Program-made: the position numbers and the translations under genes
Part shown: piece after piece, positions 30,919 through 39,324 of the stretch
How positions within the stretch are numbered: the stretch's first letter is position 1
Layout of the letters: each line of letters starts with the position of its first letter
NCBI GenBank assembly: GCA_009908745.1
Contig: JAAAOU010000364.1
Location: 309 to 64,308 of the forward strand
DNA: 64,000 nt
Reading direction: 5' to 3'
Origin: Bacteroidota bacterium
GTDB lineage: Bacteria; Bacteroidota; Bacteroidia; Chitinophagales; Saprospiraceae
Notes under the pieces: generated by a model
What the model saw: only the letters and a program-made list of their open reading frames with translations
Database searches by the model: none
What the model was told of the DNA's origin: nothing

Positions 30919-31010
30919 AGGGTTGAAAAGTTAGAACGTCGATTGAGTTGAAGGGTTATCTTAACTCCTGAGTGGGTAGATAGCCCTTCTGCTTTTTGGG
31001 GTAGTTGGAA

Positions 31011-31255
31011 AGTTGAAAAGTTGGCAGGTTGAAAATTTGAAGTGTTGCCCACCGTGCCCAGTTGAAAAGTTGGCAGGTTGAAAATTTGAAGTGTTGCCCG
31101 CCGTGCTCAGTTGAAAAGTTGACAGGTTGAAAAGTTGAAGGGTTGCCCACCGTGCCCAGTTGAAAAGTTGACAGGTTGAAAAGTTAAAGTGTTGCCCACC
31201 GTGCTCAGTTGAAAAGTTGACAGGTTGAAAAGTTGAAGCGTTGCCCGCCGCGCGA
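31011..31255 (+). repeat. Tandem array, 5 x 49 bp (array 1, part A)
   Basis: Unit agttgaaaagttg(g/a)caggttgaaaa(t/g)ttgaagtgttgccc(a/g)ccgtgc(c/t)c starting at 31011, 31060, 31109, 31158 and 31207. Confidence 0.95.
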
Positions 31256-31520
31256 ACCTTGAAAGACTCCTTCCCTTTGGTCATCCGCCTTCAGGGTAAA
31301 CCTTTCAACCCTTCAACTCTCCGAGCTTACCGTCCCGCCCAACCTTTCAACCTTAGAACCCTCCGAGCCTACCACCGCGCCAACCTTGAAGGACTCCTTC
31401 CCTTTGGTCATCCGCCTTCAGGGTAAACCTTTCAACCCTTCAACCCTCCAAGCTTACCGCCGCGCCAACCTTTCAACCCGCAAGCTGAACACCCCGCCCA
31501 ACCTTTCACCCCGCCCAACC
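31255..31520 (+). repeat. Two copies of the ~125-bp module B (array 1, part B)
   Basis: aaccttgaa(a/g)gactccttccctttggtcatccgccttcagggtaaacctttcaacccttcaac... at ~31255 and ~31382. Rich in aacctttcaacc, which is the near reverse complement of part A's ggttgaaaagtt. Confidence 0.9.
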
Positions 31521-31542: not shown

Positions 31543-31878
31543 TCAGACGATTTCCAAGAGACCATACTGAGTACTTTCGTGCAGGGCTGTGATTTGTTCA
31601 TGATGGCGGATCAATAGGCTTTTGATATTCTCAGTTGATTGGTTCCCCGTTCTGAGTAGTATAACCTTAGGGGGGAAGCCTTTTTGGACAGAAAAGTGGT
31701 AATAATCTTCATCATTCGTTACGATCATGGCATTGTTGTCTTCCGCCCAATTCCATATCGCAATATCGCTAGCAGGAACCGGTAAGCCACAGCGATCTAC
31801 ATGCTCCACGTGTCCAAATTTTGGCGACAGTAAACTGATCAATCGCCAAGAAAGATTGGCATCCAGCAGTAATTTCAT
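31543..31878 (-). CDS. DUF5615 family PIN-like protein (VapC45-type toxin)
   Basis: MKLLLDANLS, ASDIAIWNWA, IVTNDEDY, PPKVILLRTGN. Confidence 0.9.
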   Translation of the reverse strand: MKLLLDANLSWRLISLLSPKFGHVEHVDRCGLPVPASDIAIWNWAEDNNAMIVTNDEDYYHFSVQKGFPPKVILLRTGNQSTENIKSLLIRHHEQITALHESTQYGLLEIV

Positions 31879-31879
31879 T

Positions 31880-32113
31880 TTACGCGGCGATAATTTGAGT
31901 TATTTGCTCCCGGTAAGCTGCAAAGGCCAGCGCGGCGAAGAGGTGCTCCTGCTTAAGAGTCGGAAAGTCTATGAGTATCTCTTCATAGCTCATACCAGAG
32001 GCAAGCCATTGCAGTATATCTGAAACAGCGATACGGGTACCTTTTATACAGGGCTTGCCGAAACGGATATTGGGGTCAATGCTGATGTATTCTTGATATT
32101 TATTCATTTTCAT
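31880..32113 (-). CDS. DUF433 family antitoxin
   Basis: ISIDPNIRFGKPCIKGTRIAVSDIL..LASGMSYEEIL.DFPTL...AAL.FAA. ATG at 32113 or 32107; stop is 1 nt from the DUF5615 start. Confidence 0.92.
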   Translation of the reverse strand: MKMNKYQEYISIDPNIRFGKPCIKGTRIAVSDILQWLASGMSYEEILIDFPTLKQEHLFAALAFAAYREQITQIIAA

Positions 32114-32261
32114 TTCTATTGCCGTTGTAGAAAAACCCGCTCTCATGTAAGATAGTTCTTTGCCCTGAACTCTTTTGCTTTTAGAGCCTCATTTTTTCAC
32201 CTTTTAAGGTGGCAGCCTTGCCCACCGTGCGCGTGAGCTAACCGTCCCGCCCACTGTGCCC

Positions 32262-32457
32262 GGTTGAAAAGTTGCCAGGTTGAAAAGTTGAAGTGTTGCC
32301 CGCCGTGCCCAGTTGAAAAGTTGCCAGGTTGAAAAGTTGAAGCGTTGCCCACCGTGCCCAGTTGAAAAGTTGCCAGGTTGAAAAGTTGAAGTGTTGCCCA
32401 CCGTGCCAGGTTGAAAAGTTGCCAGGTTGAAAAGTTGAAGTGTTGCCCGCCGCGCCA
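32262..32457 (+). repeat. Tandem array, 4 x 49 bp (array 2, part A)
   Basis: Units start at 32262, 32311, 32360 and 32409; same unit as array 1 but with ttgccagg in place of ttggcagg/ttgacagg. Confidence 0.95.
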
Positions 32458-32675
32458 ACCTTGAAGGACTCCTTCCCTTTGGTCATCCGCCTTCAGGGTA
32501 AACCTTTCAACCCTTCAACTCTCCGAGCTTACCGTCCCGCCCAACCTTTCAACCTTAGAACCCTCCGAGCCTACCACCCCGCCAACCTTTCAACCCTTCA
32601 ACCCGCGAGCTGAACACCGTGCCAACCTTTCAACCCTTCAACCCTCCAAGCTTACCACCCCGCCACCCCTTCAAC
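32457..32675 (+). repeat. Module B plus decaying aacctttcaacccttcaac subunits (array 2, part B)
   Basis: 32457-32580 is nearly identical to 31255-31380. Confidence 0.9.
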
Positions 32676-34507: not shown

Positions 34508-36052
34508 CTACTTCACCAACGGAGCTGCCACCGCCTCCACCGCCCGCCAACTATAAGCGCGGGCACCTTCCCGTACACCTTTCTCTCGGTTGATGTGCTT
34601 GAGGTAAAATGCACCTCTAGGCGGCTGCACGCTTTCCATTTGCGTGCTCCGGTGTAGGCGCTCGTAGGTATCGTAGTCCAGCTCGTGCCGCTTCTCGAGG
34701 GATGCCATAAATTGGAATTGCTCGGTGCTGGCCCGCCAGCCTGGCTCTACCGTAGCGGTGAATACTTTGGATTTGGAGCCGCTGCCGTAGGCAAAAAAAC
34801 CGAAGGTGGAATGGGTGAGGTCGCGCTCCGATTGCAATGCTGCTTCCAGCGTGCTCATCAGCGCCAAGAAGATAGAAGCGGTGTAGAGGTTGCCGACTTT
34901 AGAGGAGGCGCGCTCGCCCTTTTCGATCTTTTCGGCAACGAAACGCCGGTAGCGCTCCGTCTTGGTAACCGCCCGCAGGTATTTTGCTTTGGCCTTTTCG
35001 TAGTCGGCTTCCGCTTCGTACTGTGCTGGCTGGGGCTCCTCTTGTTCTATCAGTGCCGCCGTACGCTCCCAATCACCTCTTTTTTTGCTTTCTTCCATAT
35101 ACAGCTCGGCAAACATACGCCGCGCTTGGTAGGCATAGGGCAAATGAAAAACCATGCGGTGCCAGTCGTCGGTTACCGGCTGTCGGGCATCAAGGCCAGC
35201 TTTCCGGGTGTAGTGCTGTAGCGCCTCGCCGATGCGTTTTTGGTAGCAGGCATTGGAGTAGGGACCGTCAAATACCGGGGTGTCCCGGTGTACGTCCACG
35301 AATGCATCCGGGTGGGAAAGTAGGCCATTGGCAGCTTCGCTATCGTCCATCTTTTGGAGAGTGGCTTGTACCTGCGCTTCGTCTTGTCCGCTTTCGCGCA
35401 ATGCCTCCGCTACAATCTGCTGTTTAGAATATTGCCGGAGCGGTTTGAAAAAATCATGCACGCTGCGGCTAGCGACGCCCCAGCTGTCGTGTATGCTCAG
35501 CAAGCTTGGGTCTTGTTTGACCAGCATGGCCACTGCGCCTGCTCCTTGCGTGTATTCCCCGCCGGAAGCCATATCGTAGCGGGCGATGTCAGAGGCGACC
35601 ACTATGCCGATGCGGTCTTTTCCTCCCCGGACCCAATCCAGCGTATTTTGCAGCGCATCCACCGCGCCGATGCAGGCGAAAGTGAGGTCGACTACATCGC
35701 AATTTAGAAAGGCGTCTTTGCCCTCCTCTTCTGCGTAGTACTGCGTCAGCATATCCAGCACATAAGAGGCCATAGGCTTAGAGCCGTCCACGGTACTTTC
35801 TGTGCCCATGTAGATACGGCCCACCTGCTCAGGTTTGAGGCCGTTGCGTTGCATGAGCTGCAGTACGGCATTGGCAGCCATCGTAGCGACGTCTTCGTGG
35901 GCGTCCGCCACAGCCATTGCTTCCAAACCGAGTCCTTTGTTGAGCTTGGCGTACTCCAAATCCCGGGCTTGCGCCAAGGTTTTGATAGGCAGATAGAGGG
36001 AGGGTAGGTAGACGGCAAGGTCGTCTATTCCCACTTTGGGCGTTGTATGCAT
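34508..36052 (-). CDS. mvaS: Hydroxymethylglutaryl-CoA synthase (mevalonate pathway, Bacteroidota type)
   Basis: KLNKGLG...EDVATMAANA, GTES..DGSKP, FACIGAVDAL (catalytic Cys), GEYTQGAGAVA, FDGPYSN, FHLPY, GNLYTAS, YGSGS. Confidence 0.93.
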   Translation of the reverse strand: MHTTPKVGIDDLAVYLPSLYLPIKTLAQARDLEYAKLNKGLGLEAMAVADAHEDVATMAANAVLQLMQRNGLKPEQVGRIYMGTESTVDGSKPMASYVLDMLTQYYAEEEGKDAFLNCDVVDLTFACIGAVDALQNTLDWVRGGKDRIGIVVASDIARYDMASGGEYTQGAGAVAMLVKQDPSLLSIHDSWGVASRSVHDFFKPLRQYSKQQIVAEALRESGQDEAQVQATLQKMDDSEAANGLLSHPDAFVDVHRDTPVFDGPYSNACYQKRIGEALQHYTRKAGLDARQPVTDDWHRMVFHLPYAYQARRMFAELYMEESKKRGDWERTAALIEQEEPQPAQYEAEADYEKAKAKYLRAVTKTERYRRFVAEKIEKGERASSKVGNLYTASIFLALMSTLEAALQSERDLTHSTFGFFAYGSGSKSKVFTATVEPGWRASTEQFQFMASLEKRHELDYDTYERLHRSTQMESVQPPRGAFYLKHINREKGVREGARAYSWRAVEAVAAPLVK

Positions 36053-36322: not shown

Positions 36323-36565
36323 CTACTCGTAGCGCTTGAAGATTTTGTCAATCTCATGGGCGAGCTCCCGGTCTTTGTCGGTCACCACATCGCCAGCGTC
36401 GTGGGTGCTGAGGGCAAAGTCCACGGTGTTGTATACGTTGTGCCAGTCGGGGTGGTGCTGCAGTTTTTCTGCCTTGAAGGCCACTTCAGTCATAAAGCTG
36501 AAGGCCTGGGTAAAGTCTTCGAACTTGAAGGTTGCTTTGAGTTTATTGTCTGACTCTTTCCACAT
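36323..36565 (-). CDS. phhB: Pterin-4-alpha-carbinolamine dehydratase
   Basis: FKFEDFTQAFSFMTEVA..AEKLQHHPDW.NVYNTV...LSTHD.G..VT.KD..LA. Confidence 0.95.
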   Translation of the reverse strand: MWKESDNKLKATFKFEDFTQAFSFMTEVAFKAEKLQHHPDWHNVYNTVDFALSTHDAGDVVTDKDRELAHEIDKIFKRYE

Positions 36566-36667
36566 AATCGTTCTTTTAAGGTAATTGTGTAAATTAGGCT
36601 TTCCTTTTCAAGCCCGCAGCCGGGAAAATGTTCACCTGCTACGCCATCATTTCAATAACGAGCACCT

Positions 36668-37576
36668 ATGCGATTAGTACAACACAAGAGAGAAGCCTAC
36701 TGGTTTTACCGCTTTTTGTCTATTTTTTACGACAAGTTGGTCAACCCACTGTTCTGGACCGCCCCGATGCGGGATAAAGCCCTAAAGTTGGCCCAGCTGG
36801 ACGAAGCAGGCATCACGGTGATAGACGTGGGCTCGGGTACTGGCTTTACCACGGAGGGGATCGTACGCTACGTTTCGCCGCAGCAGGTGACTTGCGTGGA
36901 CCAAAGCCCGCACCAAATGGAGCAAGCGAAAGCCAAGCCGGTGCTGCAGGGGTGTACTTTCCAACAGGGCGATGCAGAAAATATCCCTTTTCCCAGCCAG
37001 CAATTCGACCGGTATGTGTCAGCGGGCAGTATTGAATATTGGCCCGACCCCGCCAAGGGCATACGGGAAGCCTTCCGGGTGGTCAAGCCGGGGGGGATTG
37101 CCTTGATGATTGGCCCGCTTGAGCCAGCCAACCCTATCGGCCGTTTTATGGCAGAGTTGTGGATGTTGTTCCCGGAAGAAGAAGCCTACTGGCAGTGGTT
37201 CCGGGAGGCCGGCTTCGAAGAGCTGGAGGTGTGCTACGTCAAGCCGCAGTGGGTGGAAGGCAAAGGGAAGTACGGCATTGCATTAGCAGGCCGCCGCCCG
37301 CTGCACGCGGCAGACCCGCCCGAGGCAGCATCCTCAGCGGAAGAGCAAGAACGCATGGGGCTAGGGCGGCAGATTTTGCTTATCTTCCGGGTCATCATTG
37401 GGTCATTGGCCGGTTTTATTTTTATTCCGGCAGCTCTGGTCGGCCATCTGCGCCTGGCTTTCAAAAAGCGGGACCCTATTCCCGAAGCACAACGGGAGCG
37501 GCTCAACCGGCAGCAGATTACGGCGCTGGTCGTGCTTGCCGCCATTATTGTACTGCTGTTATTCATCATCTTTTAA
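36668..37576 (+). CDS. Plant-type 2-methyl-6-phytyl/solanesyl-1,4-benzoquinol methyltransferase (VTE3/APG1-like) with C-terminal membrane anchor
   Basis: QHKREAYWFYRFLSIFYD, DVGSGTGFT, DQSPHQ, GDAENIPFP, DRYVSAGSIEYWPDP.KGIREAFRV, WMLFPEEE.Y..WF and FRVIIGSLAG track Arabidopsis VTE3 motif by motif (from memory). Confidence 0.88.
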   Translation: MRLVQHKREAYWFYRFLSIFYDKLVNPLFWTAPMRDKALKLAQLDEAGITVIDVGSGTGFTTEGIVRYVSPQQVTCVDQSPHQMEQAKAKPVLQGCTFQQGDAENIPFPSQQFDRYVSAGSIEYWPDPAKGIREAFRVVKPGGIALMIGPLEPANPIGRFMAELWMLFPEEEAYWQWFREAGFEELEVCYVKPQWVEGKGKYGIALAGRRPLHAADPPEAASSAEEQERMGLGRQILLIFRVIIGSLAGFIFIPAALVGHLRLAFKKRDPIPEAQRERLNRQQITALVVLAAIIVLLLFIIF

Positions 37577-37588
37577 ACGATTTGGCTT

Positions 37589-38425
37589 ATGGACGCGCTC
37601 AACCAACAGATCAAAAAATTCTATGATGCTTCCACGCCCATCTGGCTGGATACCTGGGGGGAGCATATGCACCACGGGTACTACGGCGACCGCTTGGACA
37701 AAGACCACCAACAGGCGCAGCTCGATTTGGTAGAAGAGCTGCTGCAGTGGGGCGGGGTAGAACAGGCACAGTCGGTGTTGGATGCCGGCTGTGGTGTAGG
37801 GGGCAGTGCCCGGCTGCTGGCTCAAAAACTCGGTGCCAATCGTGTGTTTGGGTGTACCCTAAGCAGCGTACAGGCGGAACGCGCCGCCCGGTACAACGAA
37901 CTGGCGGGGCTGAGGGAGCGCGTCACTATACAAGCCCGCGACATGATGACCCTAGGCAAAGAAGACGGCCCTTTCGACCTGATCTGGTCGCTGGAAAGCG
38001 CCGAGCACATCGCTGATAAAGCGGCTTTGCTAACGATGTTCTACGAATTGCTGGAGCCTGGCGGCCGCTTGCTGCTGGCTACCTGGTGCCACCGCGAAAC
38101 CCCGCCGCCACTGGCGTATGCGGATCATCGGGTACTGGAAAAACTGCAGCGGCTCTACCACCTGCCGCCGTTCGTCCCCCTGTCGCAACTGCGGCAGCAC
38201 GCTTTGCAAGCCGGCTTTCAGGCGGTAAAAACCGAGGACTGGAGCGAGGCTGTGGCCCCCTTCTGGAAAGCCGTCATTCAATCTGCCCTGCGCCTACAAA
38301 GCATCAAAGGCTTGATGCAAGCCGGCTGGCCGACTATCAAAGGCGCCTGGGCGATGCGGCAGATGACGAAAGGGTACAAGCGGGGGCTCATTAAATTTGG
38401 AGTGCTGCAAGCCATGAAAGTATGA
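37589..38425 (+). CDS. Gamma-tocopherol methyltransferase-like protein (VTE4/Slr0089)
   Basis: FYD.S..W...WGEHMHHGYY, AQLDLVEELL, LDAGCGVGGS, FDLIWSLESAEH, LATWCHR, DWSEAVAPFW..VI.SA, KGYKRGLIKFG. Confidence 0.88.
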   Translation: MDALNQQIKKFYDASTPIWLDTWGEHMHHGYYGDRLDKDHQQAQLDLVEELLQWGGVEQAQSVLDAGCGVGGSARLLAQKLGANRVFGCTLSSVQAERAARYNELAGLRERVTIQARDMMTLGKEDGPFDLIWSLESAEHIADKAALLTMFYELLEPGGRLLLATWCHRETPPPLAYADHRVLEKLQRLYHLPPFVPLSQLRQHALQAGFQAVKTEDWSEAVAPFWKAVIQSALRLQSIKGLMQAGWPTIKGAWAMRQMTKGYKRGLIKFGVLQAMKV

Positions 38426-39324
38426 AGTCATTTTTTATCTCGTTCGCCCGTTTTTCCCGCCCACATACTATTGTGGGGACCACTTTGAGCTTGCTGGCGC
38501 TGTATTTGCTGGCGCTTTCTTACGCAGAAGGCACTTCATGGCATACCGGCTTGTTTGTGGGCTCTTTGCTAAGCTGCCTGGGGGCCAATATCTACATCGT
38601 GGGGCTGAATCAGCTCACAGACATTGACATAGACCGCATCAACAAGCCTTACCTGCCGCTGGCGTCCGGGGATTTTTCCATACGCACCGGCAAGATTATT
38701 ATCGGCGTAGGCTTGGCAATTTCGCTCGTGCTGGCGGTTTGGCTGGGGCGTTACCTGTTGCTAACCGTTGTGCTCAGCCTGTTGCTGGGTACGGCCTATT
38801 CCCTGCCCCCATTCCGGCTCAAGCGCTTCTACTTTTGGGCGGCGTTCTGCATTATCGCCGTGCGGGGCCTGATTGTCAACTTGCTATTGTTCCTGCATTT
38901 TCACTGGCAGATCAACGGCGGTACCCGGATCACGCCGACCGTAGCCTGGCTGACCTTTTCCATTTTCGTCTTTGGCTTGATCATCGCCTGGTTCAAGGAC
39001 ATGCCGGATACGGAAGGTGATCAGGCCTTTGCGATAGAGACCCTTTCCATAAAGTTAGGCGTGCGGCGGGTGTTTCTGATTGGCAATGGGCTGCTCAGCT
39101 TCTTGTTTTTGCTGTTAGCCCTGCTGCCGCTTGCGGTAGAGATGCAGGCACACCCGTGGGTATTCAGCTTGGGCCATTTGGGGATGCTGGGGTTCTTGTG
39201 GTGGTCTATTGGCCGGGTAGACTTAGGGCAACAAGCTTCTATTGCGCGGTATTACCAGTCGATTTGGCTGCTTTTCTTTGTGGAATACGGCTTGTTTGCG
39301 CTGGCGGGCTTGCTACACAGCTAA
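38422..39324 (+). CDS. Homogentisate phytyltransferase-like UbiA-family prenyltransferase (VTE2/Slr1736)
   Basis: FSRPHTIVGT, NIYIVGLNQLTDIDIDRINKPYLPLASG, AYSLPPFRLKR, VRGLIVN, FKDMPDTEGD...IETL; about 9 transmembrane helices; ATGA overlap with the upstream gene. Confidence 0.92.
   Translation: MKSFFISFARFSRPHTIVGTTLSLLALYLLALSYAEGTSWHTGLFVGSLLSCLGANIYIVGLNQLTDIDIDRINKPYLPLASGDFSIRTGKIIIGVGLAISLVLAVWLGRYLLLTVVLSLLLGTAYSLPPFRLKRFYFWAAFCIIAVRGLIVNLLLFLHFHWQINGGTRITPTVAWLTFSIFVFGLIIAWFKDMPDTEGDQAFAIETLSIKLGVRRVFLIGNGLLSFLFLLLALLPLAVEMQAHPWVFSLGHLGMLGFLWWSIGRVDLGQQASIARYYQSIWLLFFVEYGLFALAGLLHS

Follow-up and report, generated by a model that had tools for sequence, protein, structure and literature searches.

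A VTE3-family methyltransferase gene heads a conserved, putatively tocochromanol-forming operon in heterotrophic Bacteroidota

A gene homologous to plant VTE3 lies at the head of a three-gene operon in a 64,000-nucleotide stretch of DNA from a Saprospiraceae member of the Bacteroidota (GenBank assembly GCA_009908745.1, contig JAAAOU010000364.1, positions 309 to 64,308 of the forward strand; this whole stretch is called the window below). It is followed by genes for a gamma-tocopherol methyltransferase (gamma-TMT)-like enzyme and for a homogentisate phytyl/geranylgeranyl transferase (HPT). Sequence comparisons suggest, with a probability that we put at about 0.78, that a membrane-anchored VTE3-family methyltransferase heads this conserved VTE3-like/gamma-TMT-like/HPT operon in a marine heterotroph related to Phaeodactylibacter, where it would act in a route to chromanols, and that bacteria hold the nearest relatives of eukaryotic VTE3, with donor and direction of transfer unsettled.

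The first open reading frame (ORF) of the operon encodes a protein that starts MRLVQHKREAYWFYRFLS and is best identified as a membrane-anchored, S-adenosyl-l-methionine (SAM)-dependent methyltransferase of the VTE3 family, predicted to methylate C-3 of 2-methyl-6-phytyl-, 2-methyl-6-geranylgeranyl- or 2-methyl-6-solanesyl-1,4-benzoquinol (MPBQ, MGGBQ and MSBQ). BLASTP aligns it with Arabidopsis VTE3 over 259 residues at 48% identity (236 bits, E 6e-81). The VTE3 reference used was 100% identical to the database entry At3g63410 (P0122), and the references for Arabidopsis gamma-TMT (VTE4) and for Synechocystis Slr0089 and Sll0418 each matched exactly under their own name in the database. The alignment begins at the QHK(R/K)EAYWFYRFLS motif, where residue 2 of the window's protein pairs with plant residue 65, just past the transit-peptide region, as the initial annotation had proposed. 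That annotation had also claimed that the C-terminal membrane anchor is kept, and the plant anchor indeed pairs with residues ~236-254, within a hydropathy segment at ~236-265; it had made no mention of a second hydrophobic helix, found by hydropathy at residues 284-302 and missing in plant VTE3. In an alignment of 13 sequences including plants, the QHKxEAxWFYRF, DVGxGTGF and DRYVSAGSIEYWP blocks are conserved, the SAM motif being flanked by the first and the last of these, both of which are invariant or nearly so.

More generally, the plant and algal enzyme (VTE3, also APG1 or IEP37; EC 2.1.1.295) is 46-50% identical over ~260 residues to the Bacteroidota proteins and has in common with them the QHKxEAYWFYRF block, the SAM motifs, the DRYVSAGSIEYWP block and a C-terminal anchor motif, R[FV]xxG[ST]xAG...P. 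The Bacteroidota proteins differ in having no transit peptide, in the extra terminal helix and in being encoded, with a predicted activity, in an operon of a non-phototroph, next to tocopherol-pathway genes. The cyanobacterial enzyme Sll0418, which presumably shares its reaction and pathway with the window's protein, belongs to another family and is a paralog of gamma-TMT; only a SAM-binding region of ~100 residues (48-147 of the window's protein) aligns, at 50 bits and with no full-length similarity, and the scores to Sll0418, Slr0089 and VTE4 all lie at 50-56 bits. With 236 bits to VTE3 against 50 to Sll0418, an enzyme of the Sll0418 type was rejected, in agreement with the VTE3-type assignment made at the outset. 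In a search covering 1.84 billion proteins the number of representative clusters rose from 93 at E<=1e-30 to 647 at <=1e-10 and 20232 at <=0.001, which sets the family off from generic methyltransferases. The next-best full-length representatives after the protein's own cluster were a 348-residue protein of the eukaryotic clade and land-plant VTE3 (Riccia, Musa and a fern); the nearest paralog within its own genome is 27% identical over 134 residues.

The second gene of the operon encodes a protein 44% identical to Synechocystis Slr0089 (225 bits), 39% to Arabidopsis VTE4 (217 bits) and 32% to Sll0418 (135 bits). Because the first two scores exceed the third, its product is predicted to be of the gamma-TMT type rather than a second MPBQ methyltransferase; one member of its 90% cluster carries the JGI name tocopherol O-methyltransferase. 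The third gene product passes the NCBIfam HPT equivalog model NF009525 over the full model length (355.6 bits, cutoff 226). The description of both partners as 'cyanobacterial-type' in the initial annotation stands only in the sense of families common with cyanobacteria, since the gamma-TMT-like protein lies at about the same distance from the cyanobacterial as from the plant enzyme. The mosaic pathway that it had recognized, in which a VTE3-type enzyme takes the place of an Sll0418-type one beside HPT and gamma-TMT, is borne out, and no Sll0418-type gene was found in the window's genome. The spacing is operon-like, with a 12-nt gap between the first two genes and a 4-nt ATGA overlap between the second and the third.

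The same arrangement is conserved among relatives. A large protein database holds >2000 homologs of the VTE3-like protein, the best coming from Phaeodactylibacter, Lewinellaceae, Saprospiraceae and Chitinophagales, and many of them already bear the JGI label 'MPBQ/MSBQ methyltransferase'. Scanning 185,579 species genomes yielded 344 stretches, and all locus counts given here refer to the best 80 of these, nearly all of which are from Saprospiraceae or Lewinellaceae. The gamma-TMT-like gene stands beside the VTE3-like gene in 70 of the 80 loci, and 62 have HPT; with few exceptions the gene order is that of the window, and contig ends interrupt several loci. The physical linkage first noticed in the window is thus a tight operon that recurs in most loci. 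Its carriers include isolates (P. xiamenensis KD52, P. luteus, Flavilitoribacter nigricans, Neolewinella persica and N. aurantiaca) as well as complete chromosomes of 6.5-8.9 Mb from metagenome-assembled genomes (MAGs). A tocopherol cyclase homolog lies within a few kb of the operon in four loci (L039, L040, L063 and L077) and also in genome G032. MAGs labelled Phycisphaeraceae, Nitrospira and Calditrichaceae (L046, L069 and L077) carry Saprospiraceae-like operons, the VTE3-like protein of L046 grouping 100/100 with a Saprospiraceae sequence, and these are probably binning errors, not true occurrences in those phyla.

Co-occurrence was assessed in 201 genomes drawn evenly from the window's order, among which 6 are positive for the VTE3-like gene, 9 for the gamma-TMT-like gene, 8 for a strong HPT and 22 for the cyclase homolog. 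All 6 VTE3-positive genomes are also positive for the other three, every genome with a VTE3-like, gamma-TMT-like or HPT gene has the cyclase homolog, and the tightest co-occurring partner of HPT is the gamma-TMT-like gene (8/8 HPT-positive genomes); the corresponding one-sided Fisher p values range from 1e-6 to 1e-13, those for the VTE3-like gene with each of the other three from 1e-6 to 1e-10. In the three gamma-TMT-positive genomes with no VTE3 match, the gamma-TMT gene runs off a contig end in at least two (G054 and G178).

A VTE3-type methyltransferase is also linked to homogentisate prenylation beyond the Bacteroidota, whose operon is therefore not unique. The 50%-identity representatives include high-GC bacterial sequences, one of them from Solirubrobacteraceae. 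On two high-GC contigs (L095:4456-7765 and L092:5001-6727, one labelled Solirubrobacteraceae) the VTE3-like gene is directly followed by HPT; the Solirubrobacteraceae VTE3-like gene overlaps its HPT gene, and the UbiA genes following the high-GC VTE3-like genes pass the HPT equivalog at 337 and 346 bits. The 245-kb contig of L095 also has a Tocopherol_cycl gene, immediately upstream of the VTE3-like one. The one intact named member of this clade, P0537, scores 258 bits to plant VTE3 and has the same single anchor; it belongs to another phylum than the window's protein, and the clade differs from the Bacteroidota in having no second terminal helix. No gamma-TMT gene occurs in the two high-GC clusters seen, which predicts a gamma-type chromanol there. 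Since this lineage likewise links a VTE3-type gene to HPT, and in L095 to a cyclase gene, it provides the strongest independent support for the functional assignment.

These bacterial homologs bear on the origin of the plant enzyme. In 2003, Cheng et al. reportedly found plant VTE3 to be absent from cyanobacteria and its only prokaryotic relatives to be archaeal, and its origin is said to have been an oddity since. The archaeal relatives cited in the initial annotation are real and belong to haloarchaea (Halosegnis, Natronomonas, Halobellus and others). They have the N-terminal motif and the catalytic core, and are 43-46% identical to plant VTE3 over ~185 residues; however, they are acidic proteins of 206-230 residues that have no membrane anchor, sit on a long branch and reach about half the bit score. 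Against plant VTE3, Bacteroidota proteins reach 250-272 bits and a Solirubrobacteraceae protein 258, haloarchaeal ones only 130-143, and the anchor motif given above is common to eukaryotes and both bacterial clades and missing in haloarchaea. Scores and motif together favour a bacterial affinity of eukaryotic VTE3: as judged from sequence, bacterial VTE3 lineages are closer to it than the haloarchaeal homologs known in 2003, and the archaeal origin deduced at that time reflects the genomes then available.

A maximum-likelihood (ML) tree was built from 59 sequences and 251 columns under LG+C20 with posterior mean site frequencies (PMSF); several of its rows owe their taxonomy to composition or to a single named member of the clade. 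Both the eukaryotic VTE3 sequences (100/96) and the VTE3-like proteins of Bacteroidota (91/94) are monophyletic, and the two clades are sisters with weak support (80/77). The high-GC bacterial clade joins them next (90/79), and haloarchaea together with a distant clade of unknown origin fall outside on long branches. Approximately unbiased (AU) tests do not reject the alternative groupings of eukaryotes with haloarchaea (p 0.36), of eukaryotes with the high-GC clade (0.46) or of Bacteroidota with the high-GC clade (0.46). With so weak a sister grouping and an equally close clade in another phylum, Bacteroidota are not established as the donor of eukaryotic VTE3, nor is the suggestion that the operon could mark the donor lineage; the tree called for in the initial annotation does place Bacteroidota as sister to eukaryotic VTE3, too weakly to name a donor. 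Donor lineage and direction of transfer are beyond what a single-gene phylogeny can identify. The safest statement is that the nearest known prokaryotic relatives of eukaryotic VTE3 are bacterial, membrane-anchored and encoded in HPT-containing clusters, several of them with a cyclase gene. A bolder version, to which we give somewhat less than even odds, holds that heterotrophic Saprospiraceae-type Bacteroidota and the high-GC lineage natively make tocochromanols through a VTE3-HPT-cyclase set, and that eukaryotic VTE3 came from such a non-cyanobacterial bacterium and not from archaea.

In transcriptome-type assemblies, the P0250 cluster (680 residues; members P0402 and P0403) combines a VTE3-like half and a 'tocopherol O-methyltransferase' half in one protein, and the two halves appear as adjoining genes on a JGI contig. 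P0250 falls in the eukaryotic VTE3 clade, and VTE3 and gamma-TMT are therefore linked or fused outside bacteria as well.

Transfer in the reverse direction, also raised in the initial annotation, would mean that an early alga gave VTE3 to an alga-associated ancestor of these Bacteroidota, where it entered a pre-existing HPT/gamma-TMT cluster. Phaeodactylibacter and its relatives are associated with algae, the type strain having come from a diatom culture, and both this habit and the patchy distribution of the gene set (4 of the 97 genera of the order) would fit such an event. So would the position of the Bacteroidota clade as sister to all eukaryotes, which suits a stem-lineage source, and an AU test in which nesting the Bacteroidota with the green lineage was not formally rejected (p 0.073). 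Against it, the eukaryotes are monophyletic, the Bacteroidota sequences fall inside no algal group and forcing them to do so costs 15.5 log-likelihood units; the clade from a second phylum, with the same VTE3-HPT linkage, branches outside Bacteroidota plus eukaryotes; the GC content of the operon (0.535-0.544) falls inside the 0.457-0.575 spanned by the remainder of the window; and the Bacteroidota sequences diverge to 56-60% mutual identity, which implies long residence. A recent transfer is thus disfavoured, an ancient one from a stem alga being compatible with the data, and overall we consider reverse transfer unlikely, if the most serious of the competing explanations.

If the operon does serve chromanol formation, the route can be sketched from homology, gene linkage and co-occurrence as follows. 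Homogentisate would be made by 4-hydroxyphenylpyruvate dioxygenase (HPPD), encoded elsewhere in the genome, and prenylated by HPT with phytyl diphosphate (phytyl-PP) or geranylgeranyl diphosphate (GGPP) to a 2-methyl-6-prenyl-benzoquinol. The VTE3-like enzyme would then add the 3-methyl group, a cyclase-family protein from contig C378 would close the chromanol ring, and the gamma-TMT-like enzyme would supply the last methyl group, giving an alpha-type tocopherol or tocotrienol that may serve as a membrane antioxidant. The window's genome (541 contigs, 95% complete) contains candidates for the two steps missing from the operon. HPPD is encoded on contig C167 (470 bits, cutoff 277), and a Tocopherol_cycl-family ORF of 327 residues lies on C378, away from the operon (79 bits, gathering threshold 26.6). 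The latter has YMEKDWG and FPSSWIWMQSNHL, to be compared with the YxEKNWG and FPxxWxWxQxN motifs of tocopherol cyclase (VTE1/Slr1737). Motifs of this type have been highlighted in the cyclases of plants as well as in cyclase-like proteins from heterotrophs, among which cyclase homologs are widespread and of unknown function (PMC4963081).

A number of observations weigh against this reading. The Tocopherol_cycl match of the C378 protein is limited to model positions 144-335, the C-terminal ~190 positions. A cyclase homolog is present with no VTE3-like, gamma-TMT-like or strong HPT gene in 13 of the 201 genomes (among them G002, G021, G080, G092, G104, G137 and G148), and must therefore have another role or substrate there. 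No geranylgeranyl reductase was found above cutoff in the window's genome. The HPPD may be mainly catabolic, given the nearby ORF resembling homogentisate dioxygenase (HGO), and the co-occurrence of a DUF92/VTE6-family gene with the operon is confined to the window's own family. The Fisher values count related genomes from 4 genera as independent and so overstate independence. Four RNA runs bearing the same species label as DNA runs that contain the sequence gave zero operon reads, which is uninformative. Finally, the weak deep branches, together with AU tests that reject no alternative, leave the deep order of the tree unsettled.

Some of these points would be expected if the product were no chromanol at all but a plastoquinone-like or otherwise methylated prenyl-benzoquinol acting as electron carrier or antioxidant, with the cyclase-family protein unrelated to it. 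In plants, MSBQ is a further substrate of VTE3, on the way to plastoquinone (PMC13084219), the cyclase gene lies apart from the operon in the window's genome and occurs in the 13 operon-less genomes, and the reductase is missing from the hits above cutoff. Yet gamma-TMT-type enzymes act on the chromanol ring, and it is the gene for such an enzyme that is the tightest partner of HPT; the prenyltransferase passes the HPT equivalog model; and every operon-positive genome has a cyclase homolog, which at several loci, as well as in the high-GC clade, adjoins the operon. We therefore regard a non-chromanol product as distinctly improbable, and a chromanol route as the better account of the operon.

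The HPPD gene lies ~1.4 kb from the HGO-like ORF (396 residues, 61 bits, cutoff 511; G000:C167:11254-14511). HPPD probably also serves tyrosine catabolism, and the two ORFs may form a divergent cluster for tyrosine catabolism, in competition with HPT for the homogentisate. A gene of the DUF92/VTE6 family (the phytyl-phosphate kinase family) is split over contig ends in the window's genome (C127:22-408, minus strand; C429:9-248, plus strand). Each of the three operon-positive genomes belonging to the window's own family has a DUF92/VTE6 member; as a phytol-salvage marker general to the system the gene was rejected, its co-occurrence with the operon being found only inside that family. In genome G069 a DUF92/VTE6 gene and a weaker HPT-like UbiA gene are ~1.5 kb apart.

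A generic UbiE/MenG-type quinone methyltransferase of menaquinone synthesis, the alternative that the initial annotation had itself named as fatal to its proposal, is effectively refuted. Pfam and NCBIfam give only generic methyltransferase matches for the first two genes, among them weak Ubie_methyltran and TIGR01934 matches for the VTE3-like protein, and JGI names the haloarchaeal relatives UbiE/MenG. However, the score to TIGR01934 is 58-62 bits, well below the cutoff of 158, and a true MenG is encoded separately in the same genome (contig C244, 270 bits), on which grounds the UbiE/MenG identity was rejected. Menaquinone is the usual respiratory quinone in the window's order, of whose 201 sampled genomes only 6 have the VTE3-like gene, and the similarity to plant VTE3 runs along the full length of the protein. 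Algal contamination or a chimeric contig, which the fragmentation of the assembly and the presence of the same sequence in sequencing runs filed under other organisms might suggest, is likewise effectively refuted and can be neglected, the same operon being found in isolate genomes and complete MAG chromosomes and its genes having neither introns nor a transit peptide, a bacterial-style overlap and a GC content like that of their bacterial flanks.

According to reviews, only photosynthetic organisms make tocochromanols (PMC5745509, PMC9515888), and a 2026 centenary review treats non-photosynthetic bacteria only as engineered hosts (PMC13084219). Our literature search turned up no description of heterotrophic bacteria with a native tocochromanol pathway. 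The enzyme families are known and annotation pipelines (JGI/KEGG) already give these genes KEGG-style names, but the host group, the operon layout and the combination of enzymes are unreported. Anchor-bearing bacterial VTE3 homologs found with HPT, gamma-TMT and a cyclase homolog update the idea of an archaeal origin. If the bolder version given above is correct, oxygenic phototrophs would not be the only makers of vitamin E, and plants would have a chimeric pathway, with some genes from cyanobacteria and others from heterotrophic bacteria. The cultured carriers of the operon make it directly testable whether heterotrophic bacteria produce vitamin E and what benefit they draw from it, and the compact bacterial enzymes may be of use for engineering vitamin E production.

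Table 1. Predicted features of the operon and its upstream neighbours, in window coordinates.
Feature	Position	Strand	Basis
VTE3-family (MPBQ/MSBQ-type) prenyl-benzoquinol C-methyltransferase, 302 aa (predicted)	36668..37576	+	ORF list, BLASTP, hydropathy
gamma-TMT-type methyltransferase, 278 aa, no hydrophobic segment	37589..38425	+	bit scores against references
HPT (UbiA family), 300 aa, ~8 hydrophobic segments	38422..39324	+	NF009525
Divergent intergenic region between pterin dehydratase gene and operon, 102 bp; presumed promoter region	36566..36667		
Pterin-4a-carbinolamine dehydratase (PhhB-type), divergent neighbour	36323..36565	-	profile matches
HMG-CoA synthase (mevalonate pathway), neighbour	34508..36052	-	profile matches

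Upstream of the operon (Table 1), a scan with sigma-70 models, which do not represent Bacteroidota promoters, gave neither a promoter nor a terminator that would convincingly serve the operon on the plus strand, and only weak minus-strand matches in the intergenic region. The divergent pterin dehydratase gene is possibly linked to tyrosine and homogentisate supply; of the 80 loci, 13 have such a gene upstream, no more than ~4.5 kb and mostly 1.5-1.8 kb from the VTE3-like gene, which it directly adjoins in L011 only. HMG-CoA synthase stands beside the operon in 4 of the 80, all from the closest relatives. Further upstream in the window, spurious-looking minus-strand ORFs with repeated peptide words (…FNFSTWQLFN…) at 30961-31284 and 32204-32486 surround a small ORF pair at 31543-32146, in agreement with the repeat arrays around a toxin-antitoxin-like pair described in the initial annotation.
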